A DNA stretch of 64,000 bases from an uncultured Chitinophaga sp. (lineage in GTDB: Bacteria > Bacteroidota > Bacteroidia > Chitinophagales > LD1), in the NCBI GenBank assembly GCA_964493695.1, contig CAZBPG010000001.1, forward strand, positions 71,645 through 135,644. The letters run 5' to 3'. Made by a program: the position numbers and the translations under genes. The notes beneath the pieces were generated by a model. That model was not told where the DNA came from. It ran no database searches and was given only the letters and a program-made list of their open reading frames with translations. Positions 15,733 to 62,819 of this stretch are shown here, one piece after another (position 1 is the stretch's first letter; each line of letters begins with the position of its first letter).

Positions 15733-16128
15733 CTATTGTTTTATCTGCCCTTTAAAAAATGAATTACCCTGTGCGTTCAGCAGGTTCACATATTCTTTTC
15801 CGTCTTTCTGAAAGAGCACATAACCGGTGCTGTCGCCCAGGTAGTAGTTACCGGAGATAAACTCCCTTCCGTTGATGAGCCACATAATGTTACCCGACAG
15901 CGGCACGTTCACTTTCGGGGCAGTTTTGCTTTCGAAAAGATTGTTGAACAGCTTTACGTTTCTTCCGTCTAAACTCATGCTTCCGCCTTTGCCCTGATAC
16001 ATCACTATATCCATGCTTGTAGTAGAATCGCGCATGGTGAGGTAGGTTTTTGCGGGAAGCGGTTGCTGTGCTTTGCAAAAGGCAAAAAGCAAAAGGCAAA
16101 AGGCAAAAGTGAAATGCAGTTTCTTCAT
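15733..16128 (-). CDS. Small secreted protein of unknown function
   Basis: 131 aa with a signal peptide MKKLHFTFAFCLLLFAFCKA, whose h-region is encoded by the (CTTTTGC)n heptamer run. Confidence 0.5.
   Translation of the reverse strand: MKKLHFTFAFCLLLFAFCKAQQPLPAKTYLTMRDSTTSMDIVMYQGKGGSMSLDGRNVKLFNNLFESKTAPKVNVPLSGNIMWLINGREFISGNYYLGDSTGYVLFQKDGKEYVNLLNAQGNSFFKGQIKQ
16075..16109. repeat. Tandem heptamer (GCAAAAG)x5, equal to (CTTTTGC)n on the coding strand
   Basis: Read directly: gcaaaag gcaaaaa gcaaaag gcaaaag gcaaaag. It encodes FTFAFCLLLFAFC of the 15733-16128 signal peptide. Confidence 0.9.
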
Positions 16129-16154
16129 ACGACTTCAAAAATAATTTTTTCCTA

Positions 16155-16189
16155 TAAGGGTGCCACGGTTCCGAACCGTGGCACCCTTA
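16155..16189. promoter_or_regulatory. Perfect 16-bp-stem palindrome (TAAGGGTGCCACGGTT ccg AACCGTGGCACCCTTA) in a divergent promoter region
   Basis: Base-by-base pairing was checked. It lies between the starts of the 15733-16128 (-) and GH3 16221 (+) genes. Confidence 0.7.
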
Positions 16190-16220
16190 ATATTTACAAT
16201 AAACTTATTTTGGCTTTACC

Positions 16221-18544: not shown

Positions 18545-18860
18545 CAGACCTGTCAGCGGCTTTCCGCCTTAGCGGGAAAGGTCATACAGGTCTGCAGGGA
18601 TGATACCGGAATTCCGCTATATACCTTTCAGGTCTGGTAATGGCTGTCCGCTAACGCGGGAAGAGTCATGCAGGTCTGGAGGGATGATACCGGCATAGCG
18701 GTATAAACCCGACAGGTCAGACGGGATGATAGCGGAATCCCGCTATAAACCATACAGGTCTGGTAGCGGCTGTCCGCTAAAGCGGGGAGGCTCATACAGG
18801 TCTGCAGGGATGATAGCAGAATGCCGCTATAAGCCCGTTTGGTCTGTAAACAGGTACCTT
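18545..18860. repeat. 42-bp tandem array, about 7.5 units, with two alternating hairpin-containing unit types
   Basis: CAGGTCTG-like unit starts occur at 18545, 18587, 18629, 18671, 18713, 18755, 18797 and 18839, spaced exactly 42 nt apart. Confidence 0.9.
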
Positions 18861-18928: not shown

Positions 18929-19375
18929 TTACAAATACCTCCTTCTTCTGCGTTGTTTGGGCGGCTTGGTAAACTGCTCCTTGCGTGCGGTTTCGGCAAG
19001 GGCTATCTGGCGGGCATCGTCTGCGCGGGCAAAAAATGTTCCGCCAATCCAGTATATATCCATGCGGTTGAAGAGCGCCCAACTCAGCATCAGTGCTTCG
19101 CCCACTTTGGCCAGCTTGCTTACTTTGTTTAATGCAGTTAAACCGGCAGGCACGTGGTCACCGGTTATTACCGGCAGGCCTTCCCACGATGCTACACCGT
19201 AAAAGGCAGCTGTTGCTTCGGGCGTGGAGTGAGCATACTTAAGCCGCCCGATAGAGATGACCGCTGCCCGCCCGTGTTTGCGGGCGCGCGATAAACTTTG
19301 CAGCGATGAAAACTTACGCGTGGTGCGCAGATAATCGCCTGAGGGAAGAAGCGTGTTATGAAAGTAAATTGCCAT
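18929..19375 (-). CDS. Hypothetical protein (148 aa), basic C-terminus
   Basis: The ORF has an ATG start and is divergent from the T9SS gene. I recognised no family. Its first roughly 14 codons are duplicated at 53762-53806. Confidence 0.45.
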   Translation of the reverse strand: MAIYFHNTLLPSGDYLRTTRKFSSLQSLSRARKHGRAAVISIGRLKYAHSTPEATAAFYGVASWEGLPVITGDHVPAGLTALNKVSKLAKVGEALMLSWALFNRMDIYWIGGTFFARADDARQIALAETARKEQFTKPPKQRRRRRYL

Positions 19376-19470
19376 AATGTTTTGTTTACAGCCAAGATAA
19401 AAACAAAATAAAAAAGTGGAAGGGTGGGGCTTTTACTTACTTTTATGGAAAGGAATTTTATGAAATGGGT
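19331..19470. repeat. Duplicated divergent-promoter/leader block, copy 1
   Basis: Aligns by eye to 53762-53897, with shared strings tgtttacagccaagataaaaacaaaa and ggaagggtggggcttttacttacttttatg. Confidence 0.85.
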
Positions 19471-20335
19471 TTACCGGTGTATGCTTCCTGTTCTTCTTTT
19501 GCTTTCTGCTGAAGCAAAATCGCAGGCGTATGTTTATCATCCTTTTCCGGATTCGAATTTTACATGGAAAGGGTATACTGCATGTATTGGTGGTGGCGGT
19601 CATTGGTCATGTAATATACGAGGCGACACTCTCATCAACGGCATAACTTATAAAAACATTGGGAATATCGCTAGTATTTTGTTTATGGGTAGTATTCGTG
19701 TAGATACCAGTAAGAAAGTTTTTTTCTACAACTACAAGGAGTATGTAAACCACGAACGACTTTTGTATGATTTTTCATTTTCGGTTGGAGACACAATTTC
19801 CTCTTTGGCTACCGGAGAATTGTTGAATGTGTATCTTGTAGATACTCCAAGCTACTTTGGTATACCTAGAAGAACCTTACATTTAAGGACTGCCGGGGGA
19901 GCGGATAAAGACAAATGGATTGAAGGTGTTGGAAGTCATTTGGGTCCCTTAAGTTTATCAAAAGTTTCCCCGGGATATTGCGCTTGGTCTTGTTTATGCC
20001 AAGCGTTTGATGATTCACTGTTGGTATTTGAAAGGAATGATTACCTATCAAACTTGTGTTTCCCAACTTCTTCAATATTGGAAGTAAAGGGTTTATACAT
20101 AGTAAAGGTATATCCAAACCCCTCCACCACCTACTTCACTCTCCAGCTCTCCTCATCACCAAGCACGCCAACTCATTTTCAACTTTACGATGCACTCGGC
20201 CGACCGGTGATGCGCGAAGCGATAAATACTGAAACCACTGCCCTGCAACGCGGCAACCTGCCCACCGGTATTTACTTTTGGCAGTTAGAATCAGCAAATA
20301 AAATATTGGGGAGAGGGAAGGTGGTGATGGAGTAA
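19460..20335 (+). CDS. Secreted protein with T9SS C-terminal sorting domain (type A CTD)
   Basis: Signal peptide MKWVYRCMLPVLLLLSAEAKSQA and a C-terminal VYPNPSTTYFTLQL...GIYFWQL CTD signature. The start is moved to the Met preceding the signal peptide. Confidence 0.8.
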   Translation: MKWVYRCMLPVLLLLSAEAKSQAYVYHPFPDSNFTWKGYTACIGGGGHWSCNIRGDTLINGITYKNIGNIASILFMGSIRVDTSKKVFFYNYKEYVNHERLLYDFSFSVGDTISSLATGELLNVYLVDTPSYFGIPRRTLHLRTAGGADKDKWIEGVGSHLGPLSLSKVSPGYCAWSCLCQAFDDSLLVFERNDYLSNLCFPTSSILEVKGLYIVKVYPNPSTTYFTLQLSSSPSTPTHFQLYDALGRPVMREAINTETTALQRGNLPTGIYFWQLESANKILGRGKVVME

Positions 20336-20340
20336 ACTCC

Positions 20341-20373
20341 AACCCCGAAAGGGTTTAAAACCCTTTCGGGGTT
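20341..20373 (+). terminator. Hairpin AACCCCGAAAGGGTTT aaa ACCCTTTCGGGGTT after the first T9SS gene (dispersed repeat, putative terminator)
   Basis: 14-bp stem starting 6 nt after the stop codon with only a weak T-run. A near-identical copy lies at 37480-37514. Confidence 0.55.
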
Positions 20374-22006: not shown

Positions 22007-23533
22007 ATGCGCAAAAAAATAAAGTCAGCTCTCATCTCCGTTTATTATAAAGATAAACTCGACCTCATTGTAAAAGAACTCGCTAAGCTCGGGGTGAAAA
22101 TTTACAGCACCGGTGGCACTCAAAGTTTTATTGAAGGGCTTGGTGTAAAAGTAACTGCGGTAGAAGACCTTACTTCTTATCCATCTATTTTAGGCGGGAG
22201 AGTAAAAACCCTTCACCCGAAAGTTTTCGGAGGCATTTTAGGAAGAAGAGATAACGCCAGCGACCAAAAAGAAATGGCGCAATACGAAATTCCTGAAATT
22301 GATTTGGTGATTGTTGACCTCTATCCGTTTGAAGAAACGGTGAAAGGCGGAGGAAGTGAAGAAGATATTATTGAGAAGATTGACATTGGCGGAATTTCGC
22401 TCATCCGTGCGGCAGCAAAAAACTTCAACGACACTATTATTGTTTCTACCCGCAACGATTACGAATCGCTTTTAGAATTACTGCAAACAAAAAATGGCGA
22501 AAGCGATTTAGAAGACCGTAAAAAGTTTGCCGCCAAAGCCTTCATGAACTCTTCGCATTACGATACGCTTATCTTTAATTACTTCAATAACGAATTCAAA
22601 TTCGAAGTTTTCAAAAGGAGCGAACTGAATGCAAAGGTGCTTCGCTATGGCGAGAACCCTCACCAACGCGGAGTGTTCTACGGCAATCTTGATGAGATTT
22701 TTGAAATACTAAACGGCAAAGAACTTTCTTACAACAATCTGGTAGATGTAGATGCTTCTATAAATCTCGTAGCTGAATTTTCTGAACCGACTATTGCCAT
22801 CATCAAACACACCAACAGCTGCGGGCTTGCTTCGCGCGAAACTATTGCGGAAGCCTACAAGGCCGCTTTTGCCTGCGATACTACTTCGGCATTTGGTGGT
22901 GTAATTGCCTCTAACCGCAAAATTGATTTGGCAACCGCCAACGAAATGAATTCCCTTTTCTTCGAAGTACTCACTGCACCCGGTTATGATGATGATGCGT
23001 TGGCCGTTTTAAAAAGTAAGAAGAACAGAATTATTATCAGACAACGGACAACGGACAACGGACAACAGAAAATACAGTTCAAAAATTTGCTGAATGGAGT
23101 ATTGACACAAGATGTTGATTCTAAAGCGGAAGGCAAAAGCGAATTCAAAGTAGCTACTGCAAAAGCCCCAGCCGCTACAGAAGTTTCTGATTTAGAGTTT
23201 GCCGTAATTGCCGTTAAGCATTTAAAGAGCAACGGTATTGCGCTCGTAAAAAACAAACAACTCATCGGCAGTAACTGCGGGCAAACATCGCGTGTAGATG
23301 CTTTGCAAAATGCAGTCCGCAAAGCAAAAGAGTTCGGTTTCGATTTAACCGGTGCCGTAATGGCAAGCGATGCCTTCTTCCCTTTTCCCGATTGCGTGCA
23401 GATTTCGCACGAAGCGGGAATAACCGCCATCGCGCAACCGGGTGGCAGTATCAAAGACCAGGACTCCATAGATGCCGCCAACAAAAACAACCAGGCCATG
23501 GTAATGACTGGTGTTAGGCACTTTAAGCACTAA
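22007..23533 (+). CDS. purH: Bifunctional AICAR transformylase / IMP cyclohydrolase
   Basis: 508 aa with an MGS-like N-terminal domain (ALISVYYKDKL...STGGT) and an AICARFT domain ending VMTGVRHFKH. Confidence 0.97.
   Translation: MRKKIKSALISVYYKDKLDLIVKELAKLGVKIYSTGGTQSFIEGLGVKVTAVEDLTSYPSILGGRVKTLHPKVFGGILGRRDNASDQKEMAQYEIPEIDLVIVDLYPFEETVKGGGSEEDIIEKIDIGGISLIRAAAKNFNDTIIVSTRNDYESLLELLQTKNGESDLEDRKKFAAKAFMNSSHYDTLIFNYFNNEFKFEVFKRSELNAKVLRYGENPHQRGVFYGNLDEIFEILNGKELSYNNLVDVDASINLVAEFSEPTIAIIKHTNSCGLASRETIAEAYKAAFACDTTSAFGGVIASNRKIDLATANEMNSLFFEVLTAPGYDDDALAVLKSKKNRIIIRQRTTDNGQQKIQFKNLLNGVLTQDVDSKAEGKSEFKVATAKAPAATEVSDLEFAVIAVKHLKSNGIALVKNKQLIGSNCGQTSRVDALQNAVRKAKEFGFDLTGAVMASDAFFPFPDCVQISHEAGITAIAQPGGSIKDQDSIDAANKNNQAMVMTGVRHFKH
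23038..23072. repeat. Tandem heptamer (CGGACAA)x4-5 inside purH
   Basis: cagacaa cggacaa cggacaa cggacaa cagaaaa, translated as RQRTTDNGQQK. Confidence 0.85.
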
Positions 23534-44614: not shown

Positions 44615-44623
44615 GCAAGTATT

Positions 44624-45698: not shown

Positions 45699-45715
45699 AA
45701 TCCGTGTTATCCGTG
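45699..45715. repeat. (ATCCGTG)x2 at 9-bp period in the ispB-like / PBP-like divergent region
   Basis: aatccgtg ttatccgtg. Related to the 44590 motif. Confidence 0.7.
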
Positions 45716-45744
45716 TGCCATTGTATTTTATGTTTGCATTCTTC

Positions 45745-46614: not shown

Positions 46615-46780
46615 GCGGAAAGATTTTTTCTTACAGCATACAGATTCCCAATGCGGGAATGTGATTACCTTAAAACAGATTGCGAATAGAGGAAGGCGAA
46701 TTGCGCTTGGGGGATGATTTATTTGGAATAGGACAAGGCGAAAGAGAGTTGCACTGAGACTCAACCTTATTTGCGCCATC

Positions 46781-47010
46781 TATAACATGGTTTACTAAAA
46801 TATAGCGTTTTGGCTAATTAATTAAACCATTTAATTAAATGTTCAACTATTTAAGTTATACTATAAAATATTGTGATTAATATTTAAACAATATAAATTA
46901 ATCCGTTTTATACATTACTTTATTATACCAACAATTTTATTTAAAGTTTTAATAGTTGTAATTATTCGTTTAATTATTTATTTTAGTCGTTAAAACCAAT
47001 TTATTAATTT
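46781..47010. other. Extremely AT-rich 230-bp tract upstream of the 159-aa orphan ORF
   Basis: Runs of ttaattaa/atttaa-type sequence with very few G or C, visibly unlike the flanking DNA. Confidence 0.8.
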
Positions 47011-47490
47011 ATGAGGAACAGAGTTGATGCCACGCTTAGTCCTGCCGATATTCAGAACCTTAAAGATGCTTTTGAAACCATTAAGAACAAAATTGGATTC
47101 CGTCAAACCCTGATTGATAAAGAAAGGCGCAAGGGCGGTTGGTATTTAAGTTCCAATGCTTTGCTTTTGGCTGAGCTTGCCCTGAGCCAGGCGAAACACG
47201 CACCGGCTAATTTTCCGAAAATAGACGCGGCAGAGTTTGAGCGCGATGTAAAGCTGATTAAGGAGCTGGCCAATCTTGAATCGCAGGTGCTTAATCTTCA
47301 ATATATGCTGAAAGACACCCGCAGGATGCTTACGGTAGATACCACTGAGCAGTGCTCGTATGTGTATGCCATGCTTAAAATATTTTACGAGCAGGGCATA
47401 CCGGGCGGTGAGGCTTTTCCTACGCTTAAAGAACGTATGCCGCGCTCCGGCAAAAAAGCAACCCCTAAAAAAACCAATACGCTTACTTAA
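47011..47490 (+). CDS. Hypothetical protein (159 aa) downstream of an extremely AT-rich tract
   Basis: Clean ATG ORF, helical, with a basic tail. It resembles an uncharacterised small-protein family I believe is common in Bacteroidota. It overlaps the convergent TauE gene by 8 nt. Confidence 0.5.
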   Translation: MRNRVDATLSPADIQNLKDAFETIKNKIGFRQTLIDKERRKGGWYLSSNALLLAELALSQAKHAPANFPKIDAAEFERDVKLIKELANLESQVLNLQYMLKDTRRMLTVDTTEQCSYVYAMLKIFYEQGIPGGEAFPTLKERMPRSGKKATPKKTNTLT

Positions 47491-48235
47491 AGAACCAAAC
47501 ATACACGGTAAGCGAAAGAATGAGGCCGACCATAATTCGCTTCATCCATACTTCGTCCACCGTTACACTCCACCGGCTGGTAAGCCAGCCGCCCAGCGAG
47601 GTGCCCGCACTCATCACCAGTCCGTAATACCAGCTAATGTTTCCCTTCCAGATAAAAATGGCGAGAGCCGCTATGGTGTAAATGAGCGTTATAAAAACTT
47701 TGTAATAGTTTGTTTTGCTGATGTTGAACCGGTGAAGTAAAAGAGCCGGAGCCATCAGAAAAAAACCGGAACCGGCCTGTATAAACCCTCCGTAAATACC
47801 AATAAAGAAATAAAGAAGCAGTCCGGTGAGCTTGTGTTTTAATTCCACCCGCTCTTCTGCCACACCGGTTGCCTTCAGCGGGTTGATGAGCGTGATAACA
47901 AGAAAAAGAAGCATCACCCCTGCCAGTATTTTATTAAATACATCGGCAGGAATTTTTACCGCCCACAAAGCCCCTATAACTGCTCCGGGCACACAGGCAG
48001 CTGCGAGCCACCATTTGTAAGCATCGCCCTTAACGCCTTTGCTTTCAAAACCTCTGGCCGAAAAAAAACTTTGAAAAATAATCGGTATCCGGTTAGTGGC
48101 GTTGGCTTCTACCGAACTAAGGCCGCAGAACATGAAAGCCGAAAGCGAAACCAGCGAACCGGCAGCCGAAATGGTATTGATAAACGCTACCGCAATACCG
48201 GCCACAAAAAGAATAAGCAGATGAATAATTTCCAC
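47483..48235 (-). CDS. TauE/SafE-family sulfite/anion exporter
   Basis: About 250 aa, 7-8 TM, with duplicated TauE halves. The start is moved to GTG at 48235 (MEIIHLLILF), because the ORF-track N-terminus reads through a palindromic repeat. Confidence 0.8.
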   Translation of the reverse strand: MEIIHLLILFVAGIAVAFINTISAAGSLVSLSAFMFCGLSSVEANATNRIPIIFQSFFSARGFESKGVKGDAYKWWLAAACVPGAVIGALWAVKIPADVFNKILAGVMLLFLVITLINPLKATGVAEERVELKHKLTGLLLYFFIGIYGGFIQAGSGFFLMAPALLLHRFNISKTNYYKVFITLIYTIAALAIFIWKGNISWYYGLVMSAGTSLGGWLTSRWSVTVDEVWMKRIMVGLILSLTVYVWFFK

Positions 48236-48247
48236 TCGGCAATATAA

Positions 48248-48324
48248 GAGAAGGGACGAAGGACGAGGGCGAGGGAAGAGGATACGGCTGCTACCCTCGT
48301 CACCCGTCCCTCGCTCTCGTCCCT
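48248..48324. repeat. Two-armed heptamer palindrome (GAGGGAC-type / CCCTCGY-type) in a divergent intergenic region
   Basis: gagaagggacgaaggacgagggcgagggaagagg ... ccctcgtcacccgtccctcgctctcgtccct. The arms are imperfectly complementary. Confidence 0.85.
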
Positions 48325-48401
48325 TTTTCAATTAGACAATATTTCTAAACGTGTTGAGAGCAACGAACCCCTGCTCAATTCAATTCTTATTTTTGACCGG
48401 T

Positions 48402-49073
48402 ATGCAAAAAACAGCGTTAGTAATTGGTGCCACCGGCCTGGTGGGCGAACAGTGTTTGAATGAACTGCTTAATTCTGTTGCATACGGAAAAGTAATTGCG
48501 CTTAGCCGTACAAAAATTAATAGTAAGAAAGCCAAGTTGCACAACATTGTTACCGATTTTGAAAACCTCGAAAGCCTCCGCGAACAATTAAAAGCAGATG
48601 ATGTTTTTTGCGCTATGGGCACCACTATTGCAAAGGCGGGAAGCCAGGCTGCTTTCCGGAAAGTAGATTATGAAATTCCGTTGAAGGTAGCGGAACTTGC
48701 CCGGCAGAACGGTGCGAAAAAATTCATTCTTGTTTCATCGTTAGGTGCAGATGCCGGCTCGCGTGTGTTTTACAGCAAAGTAAAAGGCGAACTGGAAGAA
48801 GCGGTAAAAAAACTGCGATACGACTGGTTAATTATTTTCCGCCCCTCCATTCTGCTTGGCGACCGCAAAGAAAAACGAACCGGTGAAGCTATCGGACGTT
48901 TTGCAGCAGAAAAACTTTCGTTTCTGTTTGCAGGTCCTCTTAAAAAATACAAAGGCACACCGGTTTACCTGCTTGGCAGGCTTATGGTAAAAATTGCACA
49001 GGAAGTTTTGCCTTCCACTTTAGAAAAAATACCGGTGGTGCGGATTATTGAAAACGAAGAGATTTTGAAGTGA
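48402..49073 (+). CDS. NAD(P)-binding Rossmann-fold oxidoreductase (HTATIP2/YbjT-like)
   Basis: It has a GATGLVG dinucleotide-binding motif right after the chosen Met (MQKTALVIGATGLVG). Confidence 0.75.
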   Translation: MQKTALVIGATGLVGEQCLNELLNSVAYGKVIALSRTKINSKKAKLHNIVTDFENLESLREQLKADDVFCAMGTTIAKAGSQAAFRKVDYEIPLKVAELARQNGAKKFILVSSLGADAGSRVFYSKVKGELEEAVKKLRYDWLIIFRPSILLGDRKEKRTGEAIGRFAAEKLSFLFAGPLKKYKGTPVYLLGRLMVKIAQEVLPSTLEKIPVVRIIENEEILK

Positions 49074-51043
49074 TGAGAGAACGACCATCGACCATTGACC
49101 ATCGGCAAGGCAAACAAGTAAATTTTGCACGCCCGGCAAGGGCGGGTGTTATTTTTATATGGTTAATCGTCTTTGGTCAGTCGTCCTTTGCTCAGCCTAA
49201 AGAAACTCCGCTCATTACGTTCCGCCAAAAACTGCTCCGCGAAAAGCATAACGATAACGTGGAGAAAATAGATTCGTTTGCTAAGCTTCACTTAATGATT
49301 GCCGGCAACATCTACCAAACCGAAAAACATGCGGCTTACGCGTATGATAAAGCCACCGGTAAATACGATTACAAAAGCGAGTTAAAATACATCCAGCCGA
49401 TACTCAACCTGGGCGATGTTACCATTGCCAATCTCAAAACCTCTTTCAGCAACAGCACAAAAAACATGTTCTCCTCGCCCGATGAATTCGGGCTGGCACT
49501 GAAATATTCCGGAGTAAATGTGGCGCTCCATGCCAACGTGCATACTGCCAACATCAGCAAGGCCAATTTAAAACGCACACACGAAGTGCTTGATGGATAT
49601 GATGTTTATCACACCGGTGCTTTCATGGATAACATTCAGCGCAACGGCAACTATCCGCTTATCGTCAACAAAAAGGGTTTTCGGATTGCCGTGCTCAATT
49701 ACACCAACCTCACTTCGCGCCCTTCCGTTTCGCGCGATTTTGTCATCAACGAAATTGACAAAACCACTATTGATAAGGATATGCGCCTCACACACGCCTA
49801 CAAACCGGATTTTACCATCGTTTATTTCGACTGGGGCGCGAACATGCAGGACATTCCCTCCTATGCTCAACAGGAATTGGCGCAATACGTTTTTCAAGCT
49901 GGAGCCAACTTAGTGGTGGGCACACACCCCAATACCCCGATGCGCATTGATATGATGAACTACAGTTATAATGGCGAACTGCGCGAGGGCATCATTGCTT
50001 ATTCTCTCGGAAACCTCATCAGCAGCAACGAAGAAATACGCAACCGCAACGGCTATGTGATTGATATGGAGATTCAGAAAAACAATTTTACCACCGAAAC
50101 CCGTGTAAGCGATTGGGGGGTGATACCCGTTTATAATTATTACGATACTACTTCCGTACGCGGAAAAACCAGCCTGTTCGTTGTGCCTTGCGCTAACGTA
50201 GAAAGCGGAGATATTTTGCCCAACCTCGCATACATTGAAAAGCGAAGGGCAGTGAATAGTGCGTATGAAGTGCGAAAACTGCTGGGCAACGTAGCCGATG
50301 AAATTCAATACAACCTGAACGAACTGATTGTAAACAATGTGGAGGAAAGCATAAATATTACCAATGCTTCGCTTAACAACAAATACAATCCAAAGCGCGA
50401 AGAAGAAGTAAGCCCAAGCGATGCACCCGAACTGCCGGTAGCAACTACCGGCTCTGATAATCCCCCTTCACTGGCATTGCTTTACGAACAACCTGCAGAA
50501 ACAAAAACCACCACACCGGTTGTTACAAAAGCGGAAAAGAAAAGCGAAAAAGAAACCTCGTATTTAACTCAACGGAAAAAAGCAGAGGCGGTTATGGAAG
50601 CGCCAATAATTCCCAAAGAGCCGGTTGCTGAAATTTCAACGGAAAAAGTTTCGGAAAGCGATAACCCAAAAGAGGAAGTGTTAAACCCGAAAGCAAGCAG
50701 TGTGGAAGTTTCTTCGCATGAGGCAACAAAAATTTCCACCGGTGCAAATGGCGGCCTCACAGGAAATGTAGAAATGACCAAGGCAAAAAATTTGGAGTTA
50801 CAGGTTGATACGTTTTACCGCATTCAGTTCTATGCGCTTAAAACTTTTATCCCGCTGGATACTAATTACTATACCCACCTGAAAGGTTACGAGGTGCGGG
50901 TAGAAGAGGGTTTATATAAATACATGCTGGGCATGTACAGAAGTTTTAAGGAGTGTGAAACATACTGGAAAAGCCAGATACAGCCGCGCTACAAACAAAG
51001 CTTTATAGTTAAATTTATCGATGGAAAAAGAGTGGTAAGATGA
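49073..51043 (+). CDS. CapA-family (PGA_cap metallophosphatase-like) protein fused to a C-terminal SPOR domain
   Basis: About 656 aa. The CapA-like region spans roughly residues 60-400, followed by a low-complexity Pro/Glu/Lys linker and a SPOR-like end (FYRIQFYALK...YKYMLGMYRSFKECE). Confidence 0.7.
   Translation: MRERPSTIDHRQGKQVNFARPARAGVIFIWLIVFGQSSFAQPKETPLITFRQKLLREKHNDNVEKIDSFAKLHLMIAGNIYQTEKHAAYAYDKATGKYDYKSELKYIQPILNLGDVTIANLKTSFSNSTKNMFSSPDEFGLALKYSGVNVALHANVHTANISKANLKRTHEVLDGYDVYHTGAFMDNIQRNGNYPLIVNKKGFRIAVLNYTNLTSRPSVSRDFVINEIDKTTIDKDMRLTHAYKPDFTIVYFDWGANMQDIPSYAQQELAQYVFQAGANLVVGTHPNTPMRIDMMNYSYNGELREGIIAYSLGNLISSNEEIRNRNGYVIDMEIQKNNFTTETRVSDWGVIPVYNYYDTTSVRGKTSLFVVPCANVESGDILPNLAYIEKRRAVNSAYEVRKLLGNVADEIQYNLNELIVNNVEESINITNASLNNKYNPKREEEVSPSDAPELPVATTGSDNPPSLALLYEQPAETKTTTPVVTKAEKKSEKETSYLTQRKKAEAVMEAPIIPKEPVAEISTEKVSESDNPKEEVLNPKASSVEVSSHEATKISTGANGGLTGNVEMTKAKNLELQVDTFYRIQFYALKTFIPLDTNYYTHLKGYEVRVEEGLYKYMLGMYRSFKECETYWKSQIQPRYKQSFIVKFIDGKRVVR
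49082..49186. repeat. Two-armed heptamer element at the start of the CapA-SPOR gene
   Basis: (CGACCAT)x3 at 49082-49104. The second arm atggtta atcgtct ttggtca gtcgtcc at 49159-49186 is about 5-6/7 complementary per unit. Confidence 0.7.
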
Positions 51044-51756: not shown

Positions 51757-53081
51757 AAAAACAAGTTGGCAGTTGGCAGTTAGCGGTTGGCAGAGTAATC
51801 GCCCTTGTTGTGTGTCTTTTGCTGCTCGATAGTCAACTCTCAATAGGCCAGGCATCTTCTCCATATTCCCGGTTTGGCCTGGGCTATATTCACTCTCCGG
51901 TTTTTTCGGGCAATAAAGCCATGGGCGAGGTGGCAGCCCCTTACGCCAGCGGAGCAAACATCAATTTCGCCAATCCGGCTTCGTATGCTTCGCTTACGCG
52001 CACTACTATCGAAATTGGAATGAATGTAGAAGGCGCAAAAATCTATGCGCGGGATTCCAACTACACCGCTACACAGGCAGGCATTAACCATTTTGCGCTG
52101 GCTTTTGTGCCTGCGCCTAAGCGAAATAACTATGCTATCAGCATCGGCTTGCTTCCTTACTCGCACATCAACTATACCTTCATTCAGAATTTTAATGACT
52201 CTGCACTTGGCCCGTTTCGTCAGATATACGGTGGCAAGGGTTCTTTGTACCAGGTGTATGCAGGCGGTGCTTATAAAGTGAAAGGTTTTTCTATCGGTGC
52301 AAATCTCGGATTCCTCTTCGGTAAGTTAGATTATCAAAAGACCATCACTTTCCCTGATTCGCTTTATGCAAACACCACGCGTAACATCACCAGCATGAAT
52401 GTGAAAAGTTTTGTTTACACGGTTGGCGTACAATATCAGCGGCTGATTTTTCACAGCAGTAACGACCCCGATGCGCGGACAGATATCTTCATGACTCTGG
52501 GGGCTTATGGTTCGGGCGGAATGAAAATGCAGGCAAAACTTTCCAACTATTGGGACCGGTACACTATTGACCCTCTGCTGGGAGTTCTGGCAGATACGGT
52601 AGCGGCTAATTTCAATCAAAAAGCAAGCGTGAATCTTCCATTTAACATCGGGGCCGGTGTAATGTTCGGCAACGAACGCTACTGGATGCTGGGAACCGAC
52701 TTCAAGTTTATGAACTGGGAAAAGTATTCTTCTCCGTTGAACAACGGCAATTTGAGCAATAGCTGGAGAATTTCGTTTGGCGGACAGATAACACCGAAGT
52801 TTGATGAAGTAGACAAGAAAAAGTATTTAAGCAAAGTGCAGTACCGTGCCGGAGTTTATTATGGCAAAAGCGAAGTTAATTTCAATGGAAACCAGTTGAG
52901 TGAAGTGGGCGGAACTATAGGATTAGGATTTCCGTTTAAATCAGTGGCCCGCTTAAACCTTACCGGTGATTTTGGTTCGCGTGGCGGAAGCGATAAAACA
53001 ACTATCCGCGAAACCTATTATCGCATTACCTTCGGCTTTGTGTTAAACGATATCTGGTTTATCAAACGCAAATTCGATTAA
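51753..53081 (+). CDS. Outer membrane beta-barrel protein of unknown function (conserved coaX-lptC neighbourhood)
   Basis: 442 aa with a signal-like N-terminus, Gly/aromatic-rich beta-strand periodicity and a C-terminal KRKFD. Confidence 0.5.
   Translation: MKKQVGSWQLAVGRVIALVVCLLLLDSQLSIGQASSPYSRFGLGYIHSPVFSGNKAMGEVAAPYASGANINFANPASYASLTRTTIEIGMNVEGAKIYARDSNYTATQAGINHFALAFVPAPKRNNYAISIGLLPYSHINYTFIQNFNDSALGPFRQIYGGKGSLYQVYAGGAYKVKGFSIGANLGFLFGKLDYQKTITFPDSLYANTTRNITSMNVKSFVYTVGVQYQRLIFHSSNDPDARTDIFMTLGAYGSGGMKMQAKLSNYWDRYTIDPLLGVLADTVAANFNQKASVNLPFNIGAGVMFGNERYWMLGTDFKFMNWEKYSSPLNNGNLSNSWRISFGGQITPKFDEVDKKKYLSKVQYRAGVYYGKSEVNFNGNQLSEVGGTIGLGFPFKSVARLNLTGDFGSRGGSDKTTIRETYYRITFGFVLNDIWFIKRKFD
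51765..51792. repeat. Tandem heptamer (GTTGGCA)x4 at the coaX / OMP gene junction
   Basis: gttggca gttggca gttagcg gttggca, translated as VGSWQLAVGR. Confidence 0.9.
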
Positions 53082-53082: not shown

Positions 53083-53685
53083 GTGAAAGCCCAAAGCTCA
53101 AAGCCCAAAGCCCAAATAAAACCCGTTTCGCGTTTTTTATTTTGCTTTTGCCTTTTGCCTTTTGCGCTTTGCCTTTTACTCTCCTCCTGCAAAAACTCTC
53201 TTGAAGAAGCCAGGCTGATTGTATCGCGCGCTAACGTGAATATTGAAAAGGGCAAAGATGTAGAAATCAATTATTCGGATAATGGGGTGGTGCGCATTAA
53301 AGCATCGGGCCCTACGGCTACCCGGTTTAATTCCGAAAAACCTTACCTCGAATTTTCGGACGGCATAAAGATTCTCTTTTACAATGCTGCTCACCAAATA
53401 GAAAGCACGCTCACCGCAAAACATGCTACTGCGGTAGAAAACAGCCATTCCATGACGGCCCGCGACAGTGTGGTGGTGGTAAACGACAAAGGCGATGTAT
53501 TGAACACGGATGAGTTGATTTGGGATGAGGAGAAAAAAATAATTTACAGCAACTCGTTTGTAAAAATCTCTACTGACGATGAAATTATTTACGGTAACGG
53601 CATGATTGCCAACGAAAATTTTTCCGACTACACCATTAAGCACATTACCGGAAAGATTAAAGTGAAAACAAGTGAGCTGGAGTAG
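53083..53685 (+). CDS. lptC: LptC-like LPS export periplasmic protein (lipoprotein form)
   Basis: 200 aa with a lipobox (LSSC) and OstA/LptC-like beta-jellyroll repeats (LEFSDGIKILFYN...DELIWDEEKKIIYSNSFVKI). Confidence 0.65.
   Translation: MKAQSSKPKAQIKPVSRFLFCFCLLPFALCLLLSSCKNSLEEARLIVSRANVNIEKGKDVEINYSDNGVVRIKASGPTATRFNSEKPYLEFSDGIKILFYNAAHQIESTLTAKHATAVENSHSMTARDSVVVVNDKGDVLNTDELIWDEEKKIIYSNSFVKISTDDEIIYGNGMIANENFSDYTIKHITGKIKVKTSELE
53086..53177. repeat. Two-armed heptamer element at the OMP / lptC-like junction
   Basis: (AAAGCCC)x4 at 53086-53120 and (TTTTGCC)x5 at 53140-53177. Confidence 0.9.
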
Positions 53686-53761: not shown

Positions 53762-53806
53762 TTAATCGCCCGATTTAATTATACGGTTGTGCAGGTGTAT
53801 AGCCAT
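53762..53806 (-). pseudogene. 14-codon 5' remnant (MAIHLHNRIIKSGD*) of a paralogue of the 18929-19375 gene
   Basis: Aligns to MAIYFHNTLLPSGDY of the intact copy. It lies inside the duplicated divergent-promoter block and is followed 5 nt later by a CGCAGGGTC hairpin repeat. Confidence 0.6.
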
Positions 53807-53897
53807 AGCGTTTTGTTTACAGCCAAGATAAAAACAAAAAAACGGAAGGGTGGGGCTTTTACTTACTTTTATGAAAAGGGATTTTATGAGGAAGGTT
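53762..53897. repeat. Duplicated divergent-promoter/leader block, copy 2
   Basis: See copy 1. It includes the truncated 14-codon remnant and the 5' leader of the second T9SS gene. Confidence 0.85.
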
Positions 53898-54788
53898 TGC
53901 CTTTTTCTGTTGGTAGGGTTCTTATGGTTGAAGGGCTCTTCTCAACCAGAGAAGAAGTTTGCTGATTCCACCTCACAATGGACTGTTTTGGCAAGCGGTT
54001 GGAGTTTTGACTGGGGGGCTTATCAATACAGACTTTTCTATTCAGTTACAGGAAATACAATTATTAGTAACCGCGAATACCAAGTAATTAGCGAATCTAC
54101 AGATAATACACGGACAAGATTTATCAGAATGGATTCATTAGGTAGAGTTTGGATGCTTATCCCTAACGATACATTTGAATACCCGCTTTACGATTTTCAA
54201 AAAATTTCGGGAGATACTTTTTATTCTACCGTAGATGAATTTGTTAATTGGAAAGATTCCTTGTGTGTTATTGTTGACTCAGTTGATTCCCTGTATTTAG
54301 ATAAGTGGAGGGCAAGGATGTTTGTACACGGTCAAACATTGCATAATAGCGGTTGTCAATGTCAGAATGATGTATTGGTTGAAGGTATAGGCTCTCTAAA
54401 CAAATACTTGTTTGGTCCTTTATGTAATCTGGCATCTACCGATGACGTAACCTTTGATCTACTCTGTTATCAAGAGCATGGTCAGTTACTTTATGTGAAC
54501 CCAATGCACAACAACTGCATATTAGGGATTGAGAATGATGGAGTAGAATATGGTTTTCAAATTTTCCCCAACCCCTCCACCACCTCCTTCACCCTCCAAC
54601 TCTCTTCACCTCTCACCGCACAAACCTATTTTCAACTTTACGATGCACTCGGCCGACCGGTGATGCGCGAAACGGTAAATACTGAAACCACCACCCTGCA
54701 ACGCGGCAACCTGCCCACCGGTATTTACTTTTGGCAGTTGGTGCAAGGCAATAAAATATTGGGGAGAGGGAAGGTGGTGATGGAGTAA
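53886..54788 (+). CDS. Secreted protein with T9SS C-terminal sorting domain (paralogue of 19460-20335)
   Basis: Signal peptide MRKVCLFLLVGFLWLKGSSQ. The CTD IFPNPSTTSFTLQL...GIYFWQL is nearly identical at the nucleotide level to the other copy. Confidence 0.8.
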   Translation: MRKVCLFLLVGFLWLKGSSQPEKKFADSTSQWTVLASGWSFDWGAYQYRLFYSVTGNTIISNREYQVISESTDNTRTRFIRMDSLGRVWMLIPNDTFEYPLYDFQKISGDTFYSTVDEFVNWKDSLCVIVDSVDSLYLDKWRARMFVHGQTLHNSGCQCQNDVLVEGIGSLNKYLFGPLCNLASTDDVTFDLLCYQEHGQLLYVNPMHNNCILGIENDGVEYGFQIFPNPSTTSFTLQLSSPLTAQTYFQLYDALGRPVMRETVNTETTTLQRGNLPTGIYFWQLVQGNKILGRGKVVME

Positions 54789-54809
54789 AAAGGGTAATAG
54801 TTCCCTTCC

Positions 54810-60722: not shown

Positions 60723-60765
60723 ACACTCCTTCGCCAACAGTAATCTTTGGCACGTTATTTATCCA

Positions 60766-61530
60766 ATGGTTCGCATGAATTTCAGAATAACTTTTCTTTT
60801 TCTGTTTTTATACTCCGGTGCTTTCGCGCAGGATTCTTTGCTGGTGAATTTCGATTCGGTGCTTGCCAAAATTTCTGCTAATCAGATTTCATACAAAACA
60901 CTTTCCGAAAGAACCATCCTCACCTGGGATGATGGCAACACTGCCCAGCAATTCAATGCGGGTATCCGGTTGAAGAGGGATAGTTTGATTTGGATGAGTT
61001 TAGGAATGTTTGGCTTTGAAGGGGCACGCGTGCTTGTCTCGCCTGATTCGTTTCGGCTGGTTAATAAACTAACGAACGAATATATGGTGCGCGATTACAG
61101 TTTTATTCAAAGCTGGATTTTAATGCCGGTGAGTTTTGAAATGCTGCAACAGATAATTGCCGGTGAAAAAATTTCAGTGAATGAAAAAGCAACTTTCGCC
61201 ACCAAAGAAGACAGCAGCTATGTGCTTTATCTCGAATCGGATAAACTGCTGGAGAAAGTGTGGGTGGACACCGTAAGCTACACCATCAAAAAAATTCTGT
61301 TGAAAGACAAGCTGCTGAAGCAGGACATGACGATTACTTTTGACTCGTATAATTCTTTAAACCCCCGCCTGACGGTCGGGCAGGAAAAGCCGTTTAGTTA
61401 TAAGCGAAACATCATCATCCACCGCGATGCGGCAACAATGAAGTTGAGCATGGAGATAACGAAAGCACAGGTTGACGAAGAATTGAGTTTCCCCTTTGAG
61501 GTAAATGAAAAGTATAAACGGGTAGAGTGA
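60766..61530 (+). CDS. DUF4292-like (LolB-fold) outer-membrane-associated protein
   Basis: 254 aa with a signal peptide. Its position between the TPR protein and the M23 peptidase is a common Bacteroidota arrangement. Confidence 0.55.
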   Translation: MVRMNFRITFLFLFLYSGAFAQDSLLVNFDSVLAKISANQISYKTLSERTILTWDDGNTAQQFNAGIRLKRDSLIWMSLGMFGFEGARVLVSPDSFRLVNKLTNEYMVRDYSFIQSWILMPVSFEMLQQIIAGEKISVNEKATFATKEDSSYVLYLESDKLLEKVWVDTVSYTIKKILLKDKLLKQDMTITFDSYNSLNPRLTVGQEKPFSYKRNIIIHRDAATMKLSMEITKAQVDEELSFPFEVNEKYKRVE

Positions 61531-62819
61531 GAAAATTAAAAGTTAAAAGTCAAAAGCTAAAAGTTAATGGCCTGATACTGCTGTTATCTTGTGTCTTGTG
61601 TCTTGTGTCCGTAATCTCTCTCGCTCAAACTTCTGCCAAGTTAAAGAAAGAGCAACTGCAGCAGCAGATGAAAAAACTGCAGGATGAGATTAAGACCATC
61701 GAAGCCGCTATCAAGAGCAACAGCGCGAAAAAACAAAAGAGCATGAGCGAGATTCTCTCACTGCAGGCTAAAATAAAATCGCGCGAAAACCTGATTGGCA
61801 ACATCAACAACCAGATTGGTGATTTAGATGAAAACATTGGCGAAACACAGGTGGCCATTGCAAAGAAAGCTGACGAGGTGGAGCAAATGAAAACAGAGTA
61901 TGCCGAAATGCTCCGCAAAAGCTACCGGAACATTGCCCTGCAAAATCAGGTGGTGTTTCTGCTTTCTTCCAATTCGTTTTACGATGCCATACGCAGATAC
62001 AATTACCTGCTGAAAGTTGCCGAGTACAGGAGAGGTCAGGCAAAAACGATTCAAAAAACTATTGGCGAACTGGAAGTAAAAAAAGAAGACCTGCTGGAGA
62101 ACAAACACGAGAAAGAAGATTTACTGGTAAAACAAACCGCGCAGAAAAAGGAACTGGAAAACGAACGAAAGCAAAAAGATGCTGCGGTGGCTTTGTTGCT
62201 GGAGAAAGAAAAAAAACTGCGCAGGTCGCAACAGGAAAAAAACAAAGCGGTGGCACAACTCAACAACCGCATTCAGACAATTATTGAAGAAGAGATTCGG
62301 CTGGCACGCGAAGCGGCTAAGAGAAATGCCGGTAGCACCAAAGACGTAGCTGTAAAAAAAGGAAGCAACGAAACCATGCCGCTTACACCGGCAGAGCAAG
62401 CACTGTCGAAAGATTTTTCGAACAACCAGGGCAAGTTGCCGTGGCCGGTGGTGCGGGGGCATATTGTTTCGCGTTTCGGCAAGCATGAGCATCCGGTGCT
62501 GAAAGGAGTGGTGATTGAAAACAACGGAGTGGATATTAAAACCGAAGCCGGTTCGGAGGCGCGCGCCCTGTTTGGTGGAACGGTGGCGAGTGTGTTTTAT
62601 TTACCCACCACACAAAATTGTGTGATTGTAAAACACGGTGAGTTTTTTACCGTGTATTCCAACATCGAAAATGTAGCGGTAAAGACCGGTCAGGCTTTAA
62701 CTACTAAACAGTCGCTCGGGAAACTGCACACCGATAAAAACGAAGACCTCACTAAGGTGCACCTCGAAATCTGGAAAGGAAAAGATAAGATGGACCCGCA
62801 GGGTTGGCTGGCGAATTGA
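61527..62819 (+). CDS. M23-family peptidase with long N-terminal coiled coil (EnvC-like murein hydrolase activator)
   Basis: 430 aa with about 250 aa of coiled coil followed by a LytM/M23 domain (GVDIK...VKHGEFFTVYSNI...HLEIW). Confidence 0.85.
   Translation: MRKLKVKSQKLKVNGLILLLSCVLCLVSVISLAQTSAKLKKEQLQQQMKKLQDEIKTIEAAIKSNSAKKQKSMSEILSLQAKIKSRENLIGNINNQIGDLDENIGETQVAIAKKADEVEQMKTEYAEMLRKSYRNIALQNQVVFLLSSNSFYDAIRRYNYLLKVAEYRRGQAKTIQKTIGELEVKKEDLLENKHEKEDLLVKQTAQKKELENERKQKDAAVALLLEKEKKLRRSQQEKNKAVAQLNNRIQTIIEEEIRLAREAAKRNAGSTKDVAVKKGSNETMPLTPAEQALSKDFSNNQGKLPWPVVRGHIVSRFGKHEHPVLKGVVIENNGVDIKTEAGSEARALFGGTVASVFYLPTTQNCVIVKHGEFFTVYSNIENVAVKTGQALTTKQSLGKLHTDKNEDLTKVHLEIWKGKDKMDPQGWLAN
61532..61610. 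repeat. Two-armed heptamer element at the DUF4292 / M23 peptidase junction
   Basis: (TTAAAAG/TCAAAAG/CTAAAAG)x4-5 at 61532-61567 and (TCTTGTG)x3 at 61587-61610. Confidence 0.9.

Follow-up and report, generated by a model that had tools for sequence, protein, structure and literature searches.

Tandem heptanucleotide repeats have been known for decades, as the short tandemly repeated repetitive sequences (STRRs) of cyanobacteria, as long simple sequence repeats (LSSRs) and as TAACTGA repeats, and have been treated as essentially intergenic. Here we analyse a 64-kb stretch of DNA from an uncultured Chitinophaga sp. (contig CAZBPG010000001.1), referred to in full as the window, in which tandem heptamers lie mainly inside housekeeping and envelope genes and spell signal-peptide n-regions, hydrophobic cores and enzyme linkers. 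An apt analogue, already proposed in the initial annotation of the window, is the STRR of filamentous cyanobacteria, a 7-bp repeat able to form hairpins, as it does between hupS and hupL (PMC2670836). Both systems consist of short tandem arrays of 7-bp units in a few dispersed families, with some inverted, hairpin-forming pairs (PMC2670836). STRRs, however, are described as mainly intergenic and reside in heterocystous cyanobacterial hosts, whereas the window arrays are mostly translated within open reading frames (ORFs) of a member of the Bacteroidota (Chitinophagales). Head-to-tail 7-nt units occur well above chance in the window, as in STRRs; unit sequence, host and the lack of an intergenic location set the window arrays apart from the STRRs proper. 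The STRR units, reportedly described by Mazel and colleagues in 1990 as CCCCAGT, TTGGTCA and CAACAGT, have no tandem copy in the window. With the units as so reported, two local families come close: TGACCAT is one base from the reverse complement of TTGGTCA (STRR2), and CAACAGA is one base from CAACAGT (STRR3).

Heptanucleotides are the commonest long simple sequence repeats (SSRs) of repeat-rich prokaryotes, and polymerase slippage has been proposed as their source, according to the LSSR survey of Mrazek, Guo and Shah (Mrazek 2007) as summarised in PMC4679880. As far as that summary goes, the LSSRs share with the window an over-representation of 7-nt units, many unit sequences, a patchy phylogeny and slippage as the cause, and the window arrays have what defines an LSSR, a unit of 5-11 nt that is commoner or longer than composition predicts. 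The same account has units divisible by three dominating within genes, whereas in the window units not divisible by three lie mostly within genes. Such units would survive there because three of them restore the frame and the resulting heptad suits the local protein segment.

The third described system is that of the TAACTGA repeats of Beggiatoaceae, cyanobacteria and five Bacteroidetes, which, like some of the window arrays, are heptamers of 2-6 copies at gene starts and for which binding of S1/cold-shock-type (CSP-type) proteins has been proposed (MacGregor 2015, PMC4679880). That report also describes occasional in-ORF copies at protein termini, other heptamer direct repeats in Bacteroidetes, and orthologous spacers of close relatives without the repeats. 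In the TAACTGA system a single unit dominates and carries stops in every forward frame, hence its position upstream of starts, whereas the window holds several families that are mostly stop-free or stop-patched and translated. No TAACTGA doublet occurs in the window, which contains four singleton sites, and placement just upstream of a start is seen only at 14503 and 37733 in the window and at L007 5281 and L008 5452 (L-numbered loci are contigs or loci of relatives); most arrays are downstream of the start and open. The initial annotation had considered such repeats undescribed in Bacteroidota or as paired arms, which is contradicted by the heptamer direct repeats of five Bacteroidetes (PMC4679880) and by the STRR hairpins (PMC2670836). 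In our literature search we found no account of Bacteroidota in which heptamer arrays encode signal peptides or enzyme linkers, a negative that does not prove absence.

In the opa genes of Neisseria, which encode phase-varying adhesins, the pentanucleotide CTCTT forms long, perfect and hypervariable coding repeats in the leader peptide. The likeness to the window is that a non-triplet unit lies inside the signal-peptide coding region and encodes part of the hydrophobic core; the window tracts differ in being short, mostly imperfect, stable between near-identical strains and located in housekeeping envelope genes. Rickettsia palindromic elements, which Ogata and colleagues are said to have reported in 2000, stand in frame within protein-coding genes as conserved, length-adding sequences of 100-150 bp. 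They resemble the window in placing translated repeat DNA at permissive sites, as does the hairpin sequence within the essential enzyme NadE, in its linker. The window, in contrast, has tandem heptamers, no conserved element and no net insertion in nadE or PurH.

Period-7 arrays in the window and its relatives

Arrays were detected with Tandem Repeats Finder (TRF) on the 64-kb window and with a separate strict tandem scan, for which 30 dinucleotide-preserving shuffles of the window served as the control. TRF returned 17 period-7 arrays. The strict scan found seven, against a shuffle mean of 0.03 and maximum of 1, and found no arrays of period 6 or of periods 8-15 in the window. The enrichment is extreme and confined to period 7, in agreement with the earlier claim that the tandem heptamers are not random. 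TRF placed arrays at 16075, 23040, 33194, 33905/33940, 40506/40555, 48252, 49082, 51764, 53086/53140 and 61532/61587, on the spot or about 3 nt from where heptamers had been noted, with the exception of 35332. The four runs noted as single arms, at 16075, 23038, 33191 and 51765, correspond to TRF arrays at 16075, 23040, 33194 and 51764, and a further three arrays, at 13123, 14503 and 37733, had escaped the initial annotation. The tracts contain 2-5.6 copies and are mostly imperfect (75-95% identity, most with 79-92% matches by TRF); those at 33940 (4.9 copies) and 23040 (3.9 copies) are perfect. Across the lineage arrays have 2-9 copies, usually 3-5.

The arrays are not assembly artefacts, because a contig from another sample (L028), which matches the window at 99.4% identity across 3,954 nt, has the arrays at 49082 and 51764 intact, and because arrays in syntenic relatives occupy the same gene positions as in the window. 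The window encodes GldD and GldE alongside ordinary housekeeping genes, and its closest reference genomes are metagenome-assembled genomes of uncultured Chitinophagales/Bacteroidota, with CoaX identities of at most 81%. The window has 2.7 arrays per 10 kb, and densities in the syntenic loci of closer relatives range from about 1 to 3.9 per 10 kb; twelve more distant loci, about 172 kb in total, contain three arrays. Overall, this amounts to approximately 2.2-2.7 arrays per 10 kb for the window and close relatives, versus approximately 0.2 for the outgroup loci. The distribution is patchy, with few or no arrays in L005 and L009. Heptamer abundance is a lineage trait.

Arrays within signal-peptide and linker coding sequence

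Translation of the surroundings, which the initial annotation had not considered, places most window arrays in translated sequence. Fourteen of the 17 lie inside real ORFs, as do 54 of 63 in the clade. Ten fall within the signal-peptide coding segments of seven genes; two of the remainder are just upstream of ATGs, one is in the TauE leader spacer, and four are internal to genes: the nadE linker holds two, and a PurH loop and a HemW-like protein hold one each. Thirteen of the 17 are close to a start codon, between about -25 and +110 nt. For the window combined with twelve relatives, 41 of 63 arrays lie within the first 40 codons of ORFs with hydrophobic N-termini, a territory that makes up 10% of the sequence, although the relatives in this set are a biased sample, their loci having been fetched around three envelope genes. 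Orthologous 5' ends of three genes carry arrays in many relatives.

Four genes, gldD and those for an LptC-like lipoprotein, an M23 peptidase and a PGA_cap protein, were read as containing two arrays within one signal-peptide coding region. The start codon of gldD overlaps the gldE stop. A perfect array on the minus strand, (CAGAAAT)x4.9 (33940-33973, also in the strict scan), encodes the extended n-region RNQKSEIRNQK of GldD, and (GTCTGTT)x4.3 (33905-33934, minus strand), the antisense of the GACAAC family, encodes the core LSVVCCLLSV of this lipoprotein signal peptide. The N-terminus reads MRVrnqkseirnqkwIlsvvccllsvILPSC, with array-encoded residues in lower case here and below. On the plus strand, the LptC-like lipoprotein begins VkaqsskpkaqiKPVSRFLfcfcllpfalcllLSSC, with the n-region KAQSSKPKAQ encoded by (AAAGCCC)x4.4 (53086-53116) and the hydrophobic core FCFCLLPFALCLL, ahead of the lipobox LSSC, by (TTTTGCC)x5.6 (53140-53177); the latter heptamer is shared with the 16075 array and with L022 5771. 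The M23 peptidase, VrklkvksqklkvnGLILLLscvlclvsVISLAQT, combines (AAAGTTA)x5.1 (61532-61567, plus strand), encoding the n-region KLKVKSQKLKV, with (TCTTGTG)x3.3 (61587-61609, plus strand; also in the strict scan), encoding SCVLCLV within the hydrophobic core. In the PGA_cap protein, MRErpstidhrQGKQ..., the n-region residues RPSTIDHR are encoded by (CGACCAT)x3.3 (49082-49104, plus strand), a member of the TGACCAT family. The hydrophobic core IWLIVFGQSSFA (49160-49195, plus strand), noted earlier as a second arm ATGGTYA, has TRF periods of 14 and 15 rather than 7. Between these two segments lies a GC-rich stem-loop followed by a T run (49129-49149), terminator-like on the plus strand, that encodes ...FARPARAGVIFI... 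and may be a one-time intergenic terminator taken into the PGA_cap ORF.

The three remaining signal peptides contain one array each. A PI-PLC-like lipoprotein (Pfam PF16670) has (GTTTGCC)x2.6 (13123-13140, minus strand) as part of its hydrophobic core, MKRYVlpfavclLMTASC, and in a 131-aa secreted protein (CTTTTGC)x5 (16075-16109, minus strand; TRF and strict scan) makes up the entire core, MKKLHFtfafclllfafcKAQQ. Downstream of coaX, (AGTTGGC)x4.3 (51764-51793, plus strand) encodes the n-region QVGSWQLAVGR of a 442-aa secreted protein that begins MKKqvgswqlavgrVIALVVCLLLL and is without a match in a Pfam search. The longest coding array that we saw, (TTTCCCA)x9.4 at L013 12048-12113, encodes RFPFPLSHFPFPISHFPFPLSLL at the N-terminus of an LptC-like lipoprotein, where the signal peptide apparently tolerates about 22 repeat-encoded residues.

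Away from signal peptides, the perfect (GACAACG)x3.9 array of purH (23040-23066, plus strand) encodes RQRTTDNGQQ in a loop that aligns to a length-variable, unconserved loop of solved PurH chains, with no net insertion in the PDB alignment. A radical-SAM (HemW-like) protein has (GCGGAAC)x3.9 (33194-33220, plus strand) encoding aecgtrnae in its C-terminal part. Loci fetched around nadE carry arrays in the nadE linker, at two sites in panC (kseirnqkse and enskfkvqnskl) and near the type IX secretion system (T9SS) C-terminal domain of an Omp28-like protein (lelrnqksd), and a period-14 array in a loop of the acetyl-CoA carboxyltransferase gene accA (kqatdnkqrite). The two untranslated upstream arrays have the heptamer TCTAAAA in common: (CTAAAAT)x2.1 (14503-14517, minus strand) ends 5 nt before the ATG of a 95-aa ORF (MGFLDQMKQLKELQ...), which is putatively YbaB/EbfC-like, and (TCTAAAA)x2.3 (37733-37748, plus strand) ends 4 nt before the ATG of an M42 aminopeptidase.

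Open frames, stop patching and base composition

The h-region arrays must be translated, because they stand directly before the lipoboxes or signal-peptidase sites of proteins that need export. In the genes with n-region arrays, the start overlaps the upstream stop as ATGA or GTGA, likewise in the syntenic L002 and L003. No ATG occurs between an n-region array and the hydrophobic core in the window; alternative starts there are TTG or GTG codons within the core only, and their use would leave the signal peptide without a charged n-region. Among relatives, 3-5 of 21 arrays are followed by a canonical start (in L002, for example, MKVFLPRP... and MRCVFILAF...), and these arrays may be untranslated spacer. 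The n-regions with arrays are 7-15 aa longer than those of array-free relatives.

Two families, TGACCAT and AAAGTTA, contain a stop codon. In five arrays of these families all eight in-frame units are non-stop (CGA, AGA, CGG or CAA), whereas 13 of the 15 out-of-frame units retain TGA or TAA. The PGA_cap units in frame read CGA or CGG instead of TGA, and in the M23 array the sole unit whose TAA would fall in frame reads CAA. The absence of in-frame stops is partly ascertainment, ORFs being defined as open; the informative part is that out-of-frame units keep the stop. This is what selection for an open frame through a stop-containing repeat looks like.

Since 7 = 2 x 3 + 1, three units are read in all three frames and yield one 7-residue peptide repeat, in which each base of the unit is the second codon position exactly once. 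How many residues are hydrophobic therefore depends on how many T the unit has, and how many are hydrophilic on how many A, a consequence of the way the genetic code is built. The sense strands follow this rule, with A 42% and T 12% in n-region arrays, A 9% and T 55% in h-region arrays, and A 43% and T 17% in loop arrays. An A-rich n-array and a T-rich h-array are therefore automatically partly self-complementary.

Paired arms and hairpins

The initial annotation saw a conserved two-armed palindrome architecture at seven or more loci. The seven listed resolve into two true heptamer-armed hairpins, at nadE and in the TauE 5' leader, one ordinary hairpin and four signal-peptide n/h pairs. Its estimate that the arms are roughly 70-100% complementary stands at the unit level only for nadE and 48248 (7/7 each); the other values are 6/7 for PGA_cap, whose second arm is no clean array of heptamers, 5/7 for gldD, 5/7 for LptC and 4/7 for M23. 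By our calculation from the measured compositions, at least 5/7 at the best rotation is expected in about one quarter of n/h pairs. Long palindromes such as the inverted repeat I1 (36 nt, 72%) overstate significance, because periodic arms repeat one 7-nt comparison. For the 11 adjacent pairs in the window and relatives, complementarity between first and second arms averaged 5.4 for cognate and 4.1 for non-cognate combinations (Mann-Whitney p=0.21), and five of the 11, in relatives, show zero complementarity. A counter-example to a palindrome design is a 159-aa protein (L007 809-1288 and L008 983-1462, minus strand), whose N-terminus, ...RVSSFQFPVSSL...CLLSIVYCLLSIVCYSQ, derives from (CCAGTTT)n followed by (ATTGTCT)n, two arrays that are not mutually complementary.

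Folding was compared with 300 synonymous recodings of each peptide and, as a second control, with synonymous-codon permutation that keeps codon content. Against the recodings, the signal-peptide regions are no more stable than their peptides dictate (z +0.95 for gldD, -0.90 for LptC, +0.38 for M23 and -0.28 for PGA_cap), and the complementarity of the four arm pairs is probably one of A-versus-T composition.

The hairpin in the TauE leader (48248-48326; G-rich, heptamer-like arms GAGGGAC and GTCCCTC) occupies a non-coding divergent spacer and lies 12 nt upstream of the GTG at which TauE starts; the 48240-48335 region folds at -44 and -45.6 kcal/mol on the two strands (z -4.1 and -5.0). Hairpins of unrelated sequence occupy the TauE-NADb spacer in L001 and in L002 and L003, the latter two sharing one; L012 has a weak one at most. 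Of the 35332 locus, a real hairpin remains, with an 18-bp outer stem and an inner stem-loop (35333-35391) between the ssb stop and the gldE start and a fold of -37 kcal/mol (z -7.5) over 35325-35400. TRF finds no tandem array at any period there, and the hairpin is outside the array class. A terminator scan of 33000-50000 reported no intrinsic terminators at 35333, 40506 or 48248; the tails after these hairpins read CACCACCA, TTTCGCTG and TTTTTCAATT, respectively, the first without a T tail. Rfam at gathering thresholds returned nothing in the window.

Other hairpins were observed nearby. A perfect 17-bp stem (TAAGGGTGCCACGGTTC / GAACCGTGGCACCCTTA; 16155-16189, -29.4 kcal/mol, z -8.2) separates the 131-aa secreted protein from a GH3 glycosidase gene and is by position not a terminator, because, like 48248, it lies between divergently transcribed genes. 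A small palindrome (AACCCCGAAAGGGTTT) is nearly identical at 20341-20373 and 37480-37514, and with a similar one (GAAGGGTTTAAAACCCTTTC) in the L001 TauE-NADb spacer (approximately 7295-7320) it may represent a small dispersed hairpin family.

The nadE linker

The two nadE arrays (40506-40572, plus strand), (GGATTGC/GGATTTC)n and (AATCCGC)n, encode riadcgfsisdl EFEC tnpqsai in the linker between the CN-hydrolase and NAD-synthase domains. Over 120 homologues this linker is hypervariable yet conserved in length, full-length proteins having 538-558 aa. Net insertion in nadE or PurH was ruled out by the 120-homologue alignment and by PDB alignments. The hairpin folds at -39.4 kcal/mol (z -6.9); compared with recodings, the linker reaches -41.8 against -23.4 ± 4.6 kcal/mol (z -3.97), with none of 300 as stable, and it contains a perfect 17-nt inverted repeat.

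At about 86-88% protein identity, L149, L151 and L153 also have period-7 arrays in the nadE linker. L151 and L153 have the same arm 1 as the window (ATTGCGGATTGCGGATT) but a second arm of GAAATCN type, and L149 has a different family, (AGTTTCC)n, with a loosely inverted partner. An arm 2 that is an exact reverse complement of arm 1, over 17 nt, is seen in the window only. Read most simply, this comparison suggests that template switching corrected an imperfect inverted repeat in this lineage and so produced the perfect arms. Quasipalindrome mutagenesis is an established process, reportedly described by Ripley in 1982 and in later E. coli work. As there, an imperfect inverted repeat appears to have been made perfect in a single lineage; the nadE case differs in that the event is deduced from a three-genome comparison and the mutation itself was not observed.

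Heptamer families and turnover

The heptamer had been described as different at every locus, and within the window the units do look distinct; once relatives are included, recurrent families appear. Of 70 clade arrays, 43 are within one mismatch, in any rotation and on either strand, of the named families. We used distance to named families because single-linkage clustering at up to one mismatch chains too much; the families were named post hoc, and some counts include close relatives (L007, L008 and L010). With these provisos, observed and expected array numbers are 12 versus 2.1 for GACAACR, 11 versus 3.2 for GAAATCM, 8 versus 1.4 for CCAGTTT, 5 versus 1.4 for GGCAAAA, 4 versus 1.4 for TGACCAT, 2 versus 0.9 for AGTTGGC and 1 versus 0.9 for GAAGTCC. 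A few unit families are dispersed at many loci, as in STRRs, and with their recurrence in unrelated genes and genomes the argument that sequences differing everywhere imply local generation is not supported. The arrays are, as had been supposed, not copies of a single miniature inverted-repeat transposable element (MITE): alignments of array loci share the heptamer alone. One MITE or repetitive extragenic palindromic (REP) family was rejected as a candidate, with no shared flanks, no full-length consensus and units that differ between loci.

The same encoded heptads recur as well. QTTDNRQ is found in n-regions of PGA_cap and LptC as well as in the loops of PurH and accA, and RNQKSEI in the GldD n-region, panC, the T9SS protein and nadE linkers. 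The GACAAC family in the sense orientation encodes n-regions and loops, and in the antisense orientation (LSVVCCL, LSIVYCL) hydrophobic cores. At one site L007, L010 and L008 have near-identical flanks and the same register, but their arrays are of GACAAG, GACAAC and GACCAT, respectively; divergence is far higher throughout the signal-peptide segment than in the sequence around it, and the LptC 5' end behaves alike. Among the matches listed, metagenome contigs with (GACAACR)3 range in GC from 33% to 71%, include some very long arrays and are mostly non-coding at the repeat. The GACAACR family is widespread well beyond the clade.

Copy number was compared on contig sequences for three arrays (49082, 51764 and nadE). 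Window and L028 differ by 24 single-nucleotide polymorphisms (SNPs) and 0 gaps, with no copy-number change at 49082 or 51764, and the nadE copy number is unchanged between L149 and L150 (98.2% identity). Over such distances the three arrays are not hypermutable. The second strain of the window was found via CoaX alone; exact-protein look-up of the window DUF4292 protein, 442-aa protein, GldE and NadE gave no match on record. NadE homologues provided three contig pairs, two of which, being at least 99.99% identical, were uninformative. Near-identical contigs from different samples (L150 and L149; L153 and L154) also differ by many single-base indels that split genes, leaving the carboxyltransferase and M42 genes of L150 in pieces and RsgA of L153 split. 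Such differences probably reflect errors of assembly or sequencing, not biology, which matters when hunting for repeat-length variants.

Other periodic sequences and neighbouring repeats

The initial annotation linked periods of 21 and 42 bp in the window to multiples of the heptamer. The 42/126-bp tandem array at 18586-18815 (TRF score 348), just 3' of the GH3 glycosidase stop, is not built of heptamers, and the link is probably coincidental. Its units combine short GC hairpins (e.g. TCCGCTAAAGCGGGA) with the motif ACAGGTCTG, and it looks like a cluster of the bacterial interspersed mosaic element (BIME)/REP type. An AT-rich 21-bp array (37276-37362) lies in the 700-nt spacer upstream of the M42 peptidase gene, followed at approximately 37500-37690 by a degenerate run with a spacing, judged by eye, of roughly 21 nt (GGAACCG...). 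The orthologous spacer of L153 (8300-8496) has a 21-bp x9.4 array of different sequence, and L002, L011 and L013 also carry intergenic 21-bp arrays. Such arrays may derive from triple heptamers, or they may belong to an element of another kind.

Two paralogous secreted proteins (ORFs 19424-20335 and 53850-54788) are 88.5% identical over about 96 nt of upstream region and start (TTTGTTTACAGCCAAGATAAAAACAAAA...GGAAGGGTGGGGCTTTTACTTACTTTTATG). The shared stretches are 19368-19463 versus 53799-53889 and a 226-nt 3' segment, 20114-20336 versus 54567-54789; the middles differ.

Discussion

We consider the arrays to be, more likely than not, STRR/LSSR-like heptanucleotide SSRs filtered by coding tolerance. 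They would grow, shrink and homogenise through slipped-strand mispairing in 7-nt steps, with occasional remodelling by intrastrand template switching, through which an inverted pair that was imperfect would become perfect, as at nadE. Selection, to which we attribute the observed pattern, would retain arrays only where the encoded heptad is harmless or useful: the A-rich orientation would be kept in signal-peptide n-regions, inter-domain linkers and surface loops, the T-rich orientation in the hydrophobic core of signal peptides, and stop-containing units only just upstream of starts or with the in-frame stop mutated away. This reading accounts for the period, the lineage restriction, the strand-by-context rule and the stop patching, as well as for the occupancy of linkers and loops without length change and for the lack of arm specificity. 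Local generation by slippage plus template switching had been suggested from the start; template switching is a credible contributor at nadE, with its 17-nt perfect arm, and it is the appeal to locus-unique sequences that has fallen away.

Several observations weigh against this explanation. No copy number changed between strains of 98-99.4% identity at the three arrays compared, and slippage is therefore not fast. In the window, signal-peptide DNA is about 10-fold denser in arrays (10 in about 1.8 kb) than intergenic DNA (3-4 in about 5 kb), which a pure tolerance filter does not predict. All five n-region arrays of the window belong to genes with a start codon that overlaps or abuts the preceding stop; among envelope genes, 5 of 9 with such a start have an n-array versus 0 of 17 others (Fisher p about 0.002, computed by hand and post hoc). 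This association could be a consequence, in that a stop-free array in a short spacer extends the ORF to the upstream start. Arrays cluster on both sides of start codons, echoing the TAACTGA repeats (PMC4679880). The nadE linkers of relatives keep two roughly inverted arms, in two different families, though, compared with recodings, these folds fall short of significance (z -0.5 to -1.0). Synonymous-codon permutation lowers the stability of the LptC region (0 of 300 as stable) and of the M23 region (about 5 of 300, 0.017), so that some nucleotide-level complementarity beyond composition may exist at these two loci. Lastly, a few families recur in unrelated genes and genomes, including, among the matches listed, GACAACR contigs with GC of 0.33-0.71, which hints at a sequence-specific process beyond generic slippage. 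The density, the start overlap, the recurrence and the clustering at starts keep alive both a role at 5' junctions and a reading of the arrays as builders of signal peptides.

A cis element at the 5' junctions of cistrons, just before or just within the ORF, is an unlikely explanation. In a Shine-Dalgarno-poor organism the arrays would influence how translation is initiated or re-initiated, for instance as an unstructured A-rich platform or as binding sites for S1/CSP-type proteins, and their translation would be secondary. This fits the position of 13 of the 17 window arrays near start codons, the beginning of n-region arrays 1-17 nt past the start codon in window and relatives, the TCTAAAA doublet 4-5 nt before two unrelated ATGs, and the L007 and L008 arrays 4-7 nt before a start. 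It also fits the confinement of window n-region arrays, by our count, to translationally coupled genes, the 3-5 of 21 cases in which the array precedes a canonical start and is perhaps untranslated spacer, and the precedent of start-proximal heptamer repeats in Beggiatoaceae, cyanobacteria and Flexibacter (PMC4679880). It leaves aside the T-rich h-region arrays and the interior arrays of nadE, PurH, panC, accA and the T9SS C-terminal domain protein, all away from starts. None of about 35 genes for cytoplasmic proteins in the window has an array in its 5' coding end, two having weak 2-copy upstream arrays, and the heptamer at one orthologous site changes among close relatives, unlike a specific protein-binding site. 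We regard as improbable the view that selection acts on the arrays as DNA or RNA hairpins, that is, as structure-defined two-armed palindromes of local origin or spread by copying of architecture. The nadE (-39.4, z -6.9) and 48248 (-44 to -45.6, z -4 to -5) hairpins are strong and heptamer-armed, arrays are paired far more often than scatter would give, nadE relatives keep roughly inverted arms with different heptamers (AGTTTCC versus GGATTGC/GAAATCN), the TauE-NADb hairpins differ in sequence among the window, L001 and L002/L003, and codon permutation destabilises LptC and M23. For the signal-peptide loci, however, the palindrome class is already largely refuted: cognate arms do not exceed non-cognate ones (p=0.21), 5 of 11 adjacent pairs are uncomplementary, the four loci fold no better than recodings, and, by our calculation, about one in four pairings of an A-rich with a T-rich array should reach a unit complementarity of 4-5/7. 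In relatives, the nadE hairpins do not attain significance, and the pairing is explained by both arrays sharing one signal peptide.

Contingency loci, in which changes of one unit up or down would shift the frame and switch envelope proteins on and off as CTCTT does in Neisseria opa, are very unlikely here. The unit length is not divisible by 3, the arrays are in the 5' coding region of the exported GldD, LptC-like, M23 and PGA_cap proteins, and two tracts are perfect (33940 and 23040), all of which would suit such a role. The arrays compared, on the other hand, show zero indels between window and L028 or between L149 and L150, the tracts are short and mostly imperfect where long perfect ones would be expected, and many hosts are housekeeping genes (purH, nadE, panC and accA) in which switching off would be costly. 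We give the least credence to in-frame mobile palindromic elements, small selfish hairpins, akin to Rickettsia palindromic elements or the small dispersed repeats of cyanobacteria, inserted in tolerant parts of genes with single arrays as their decayed remnants. The in-frame position in tolerant protein segments, the recurrence of families at unrelated sites in both orientations and the longer n-regions relative to array-free relatives are in its favour; yet array-locus alignments reveal no element conserved over its full length and no flanks in common, nor any terminal repeats or target-site duplications, nadE and PurH have no net insertion relative to homologues, and most arrays are single direct-repeat runs rather than palindromes.

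A bolder proposal, which we hold to be doubtful, is that a sequence-biased and possibly horizontally shared process deposits a few heptamer families at the cistron junctions of Shine-Dalgarno-poor bacteria (Bacteroidota, cyanobacteria and Beggiatoaceae), and that sense and inverted copies are co-opted as signal-peptide n-region and core, respectively. Its repertoire would include GACAACR, TGACCAT (about STRR2), GAAATCM and CCAGTTT. Co-option would come readily, since the encoded heptad is hydrophilic for an A-rich heptamer and hydrophobic for the reverse complement of that heptamer. If true, this would give these bacteria a fast modular route to remodel or create export signals and linkers.

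With coding-tolerant heptanucleotide SSRs as the preferred explanation, the window offers a natural system for how repeats not divisible by three fit into coding DNA, and an illustration of how the second-codon-position rule makes the choice of strand a choice between a hydrophilic and a hydrophobic peptide. It also advises caution in annotation: in such genomes repeats give rise to N-terminal extensions and palindromes, and the apparent significance of a palindrome is inflated when its arms are periodic. Should the recurrence of families across phyla reflect a dedicated mechanism, the origin of STRRs would become testable.

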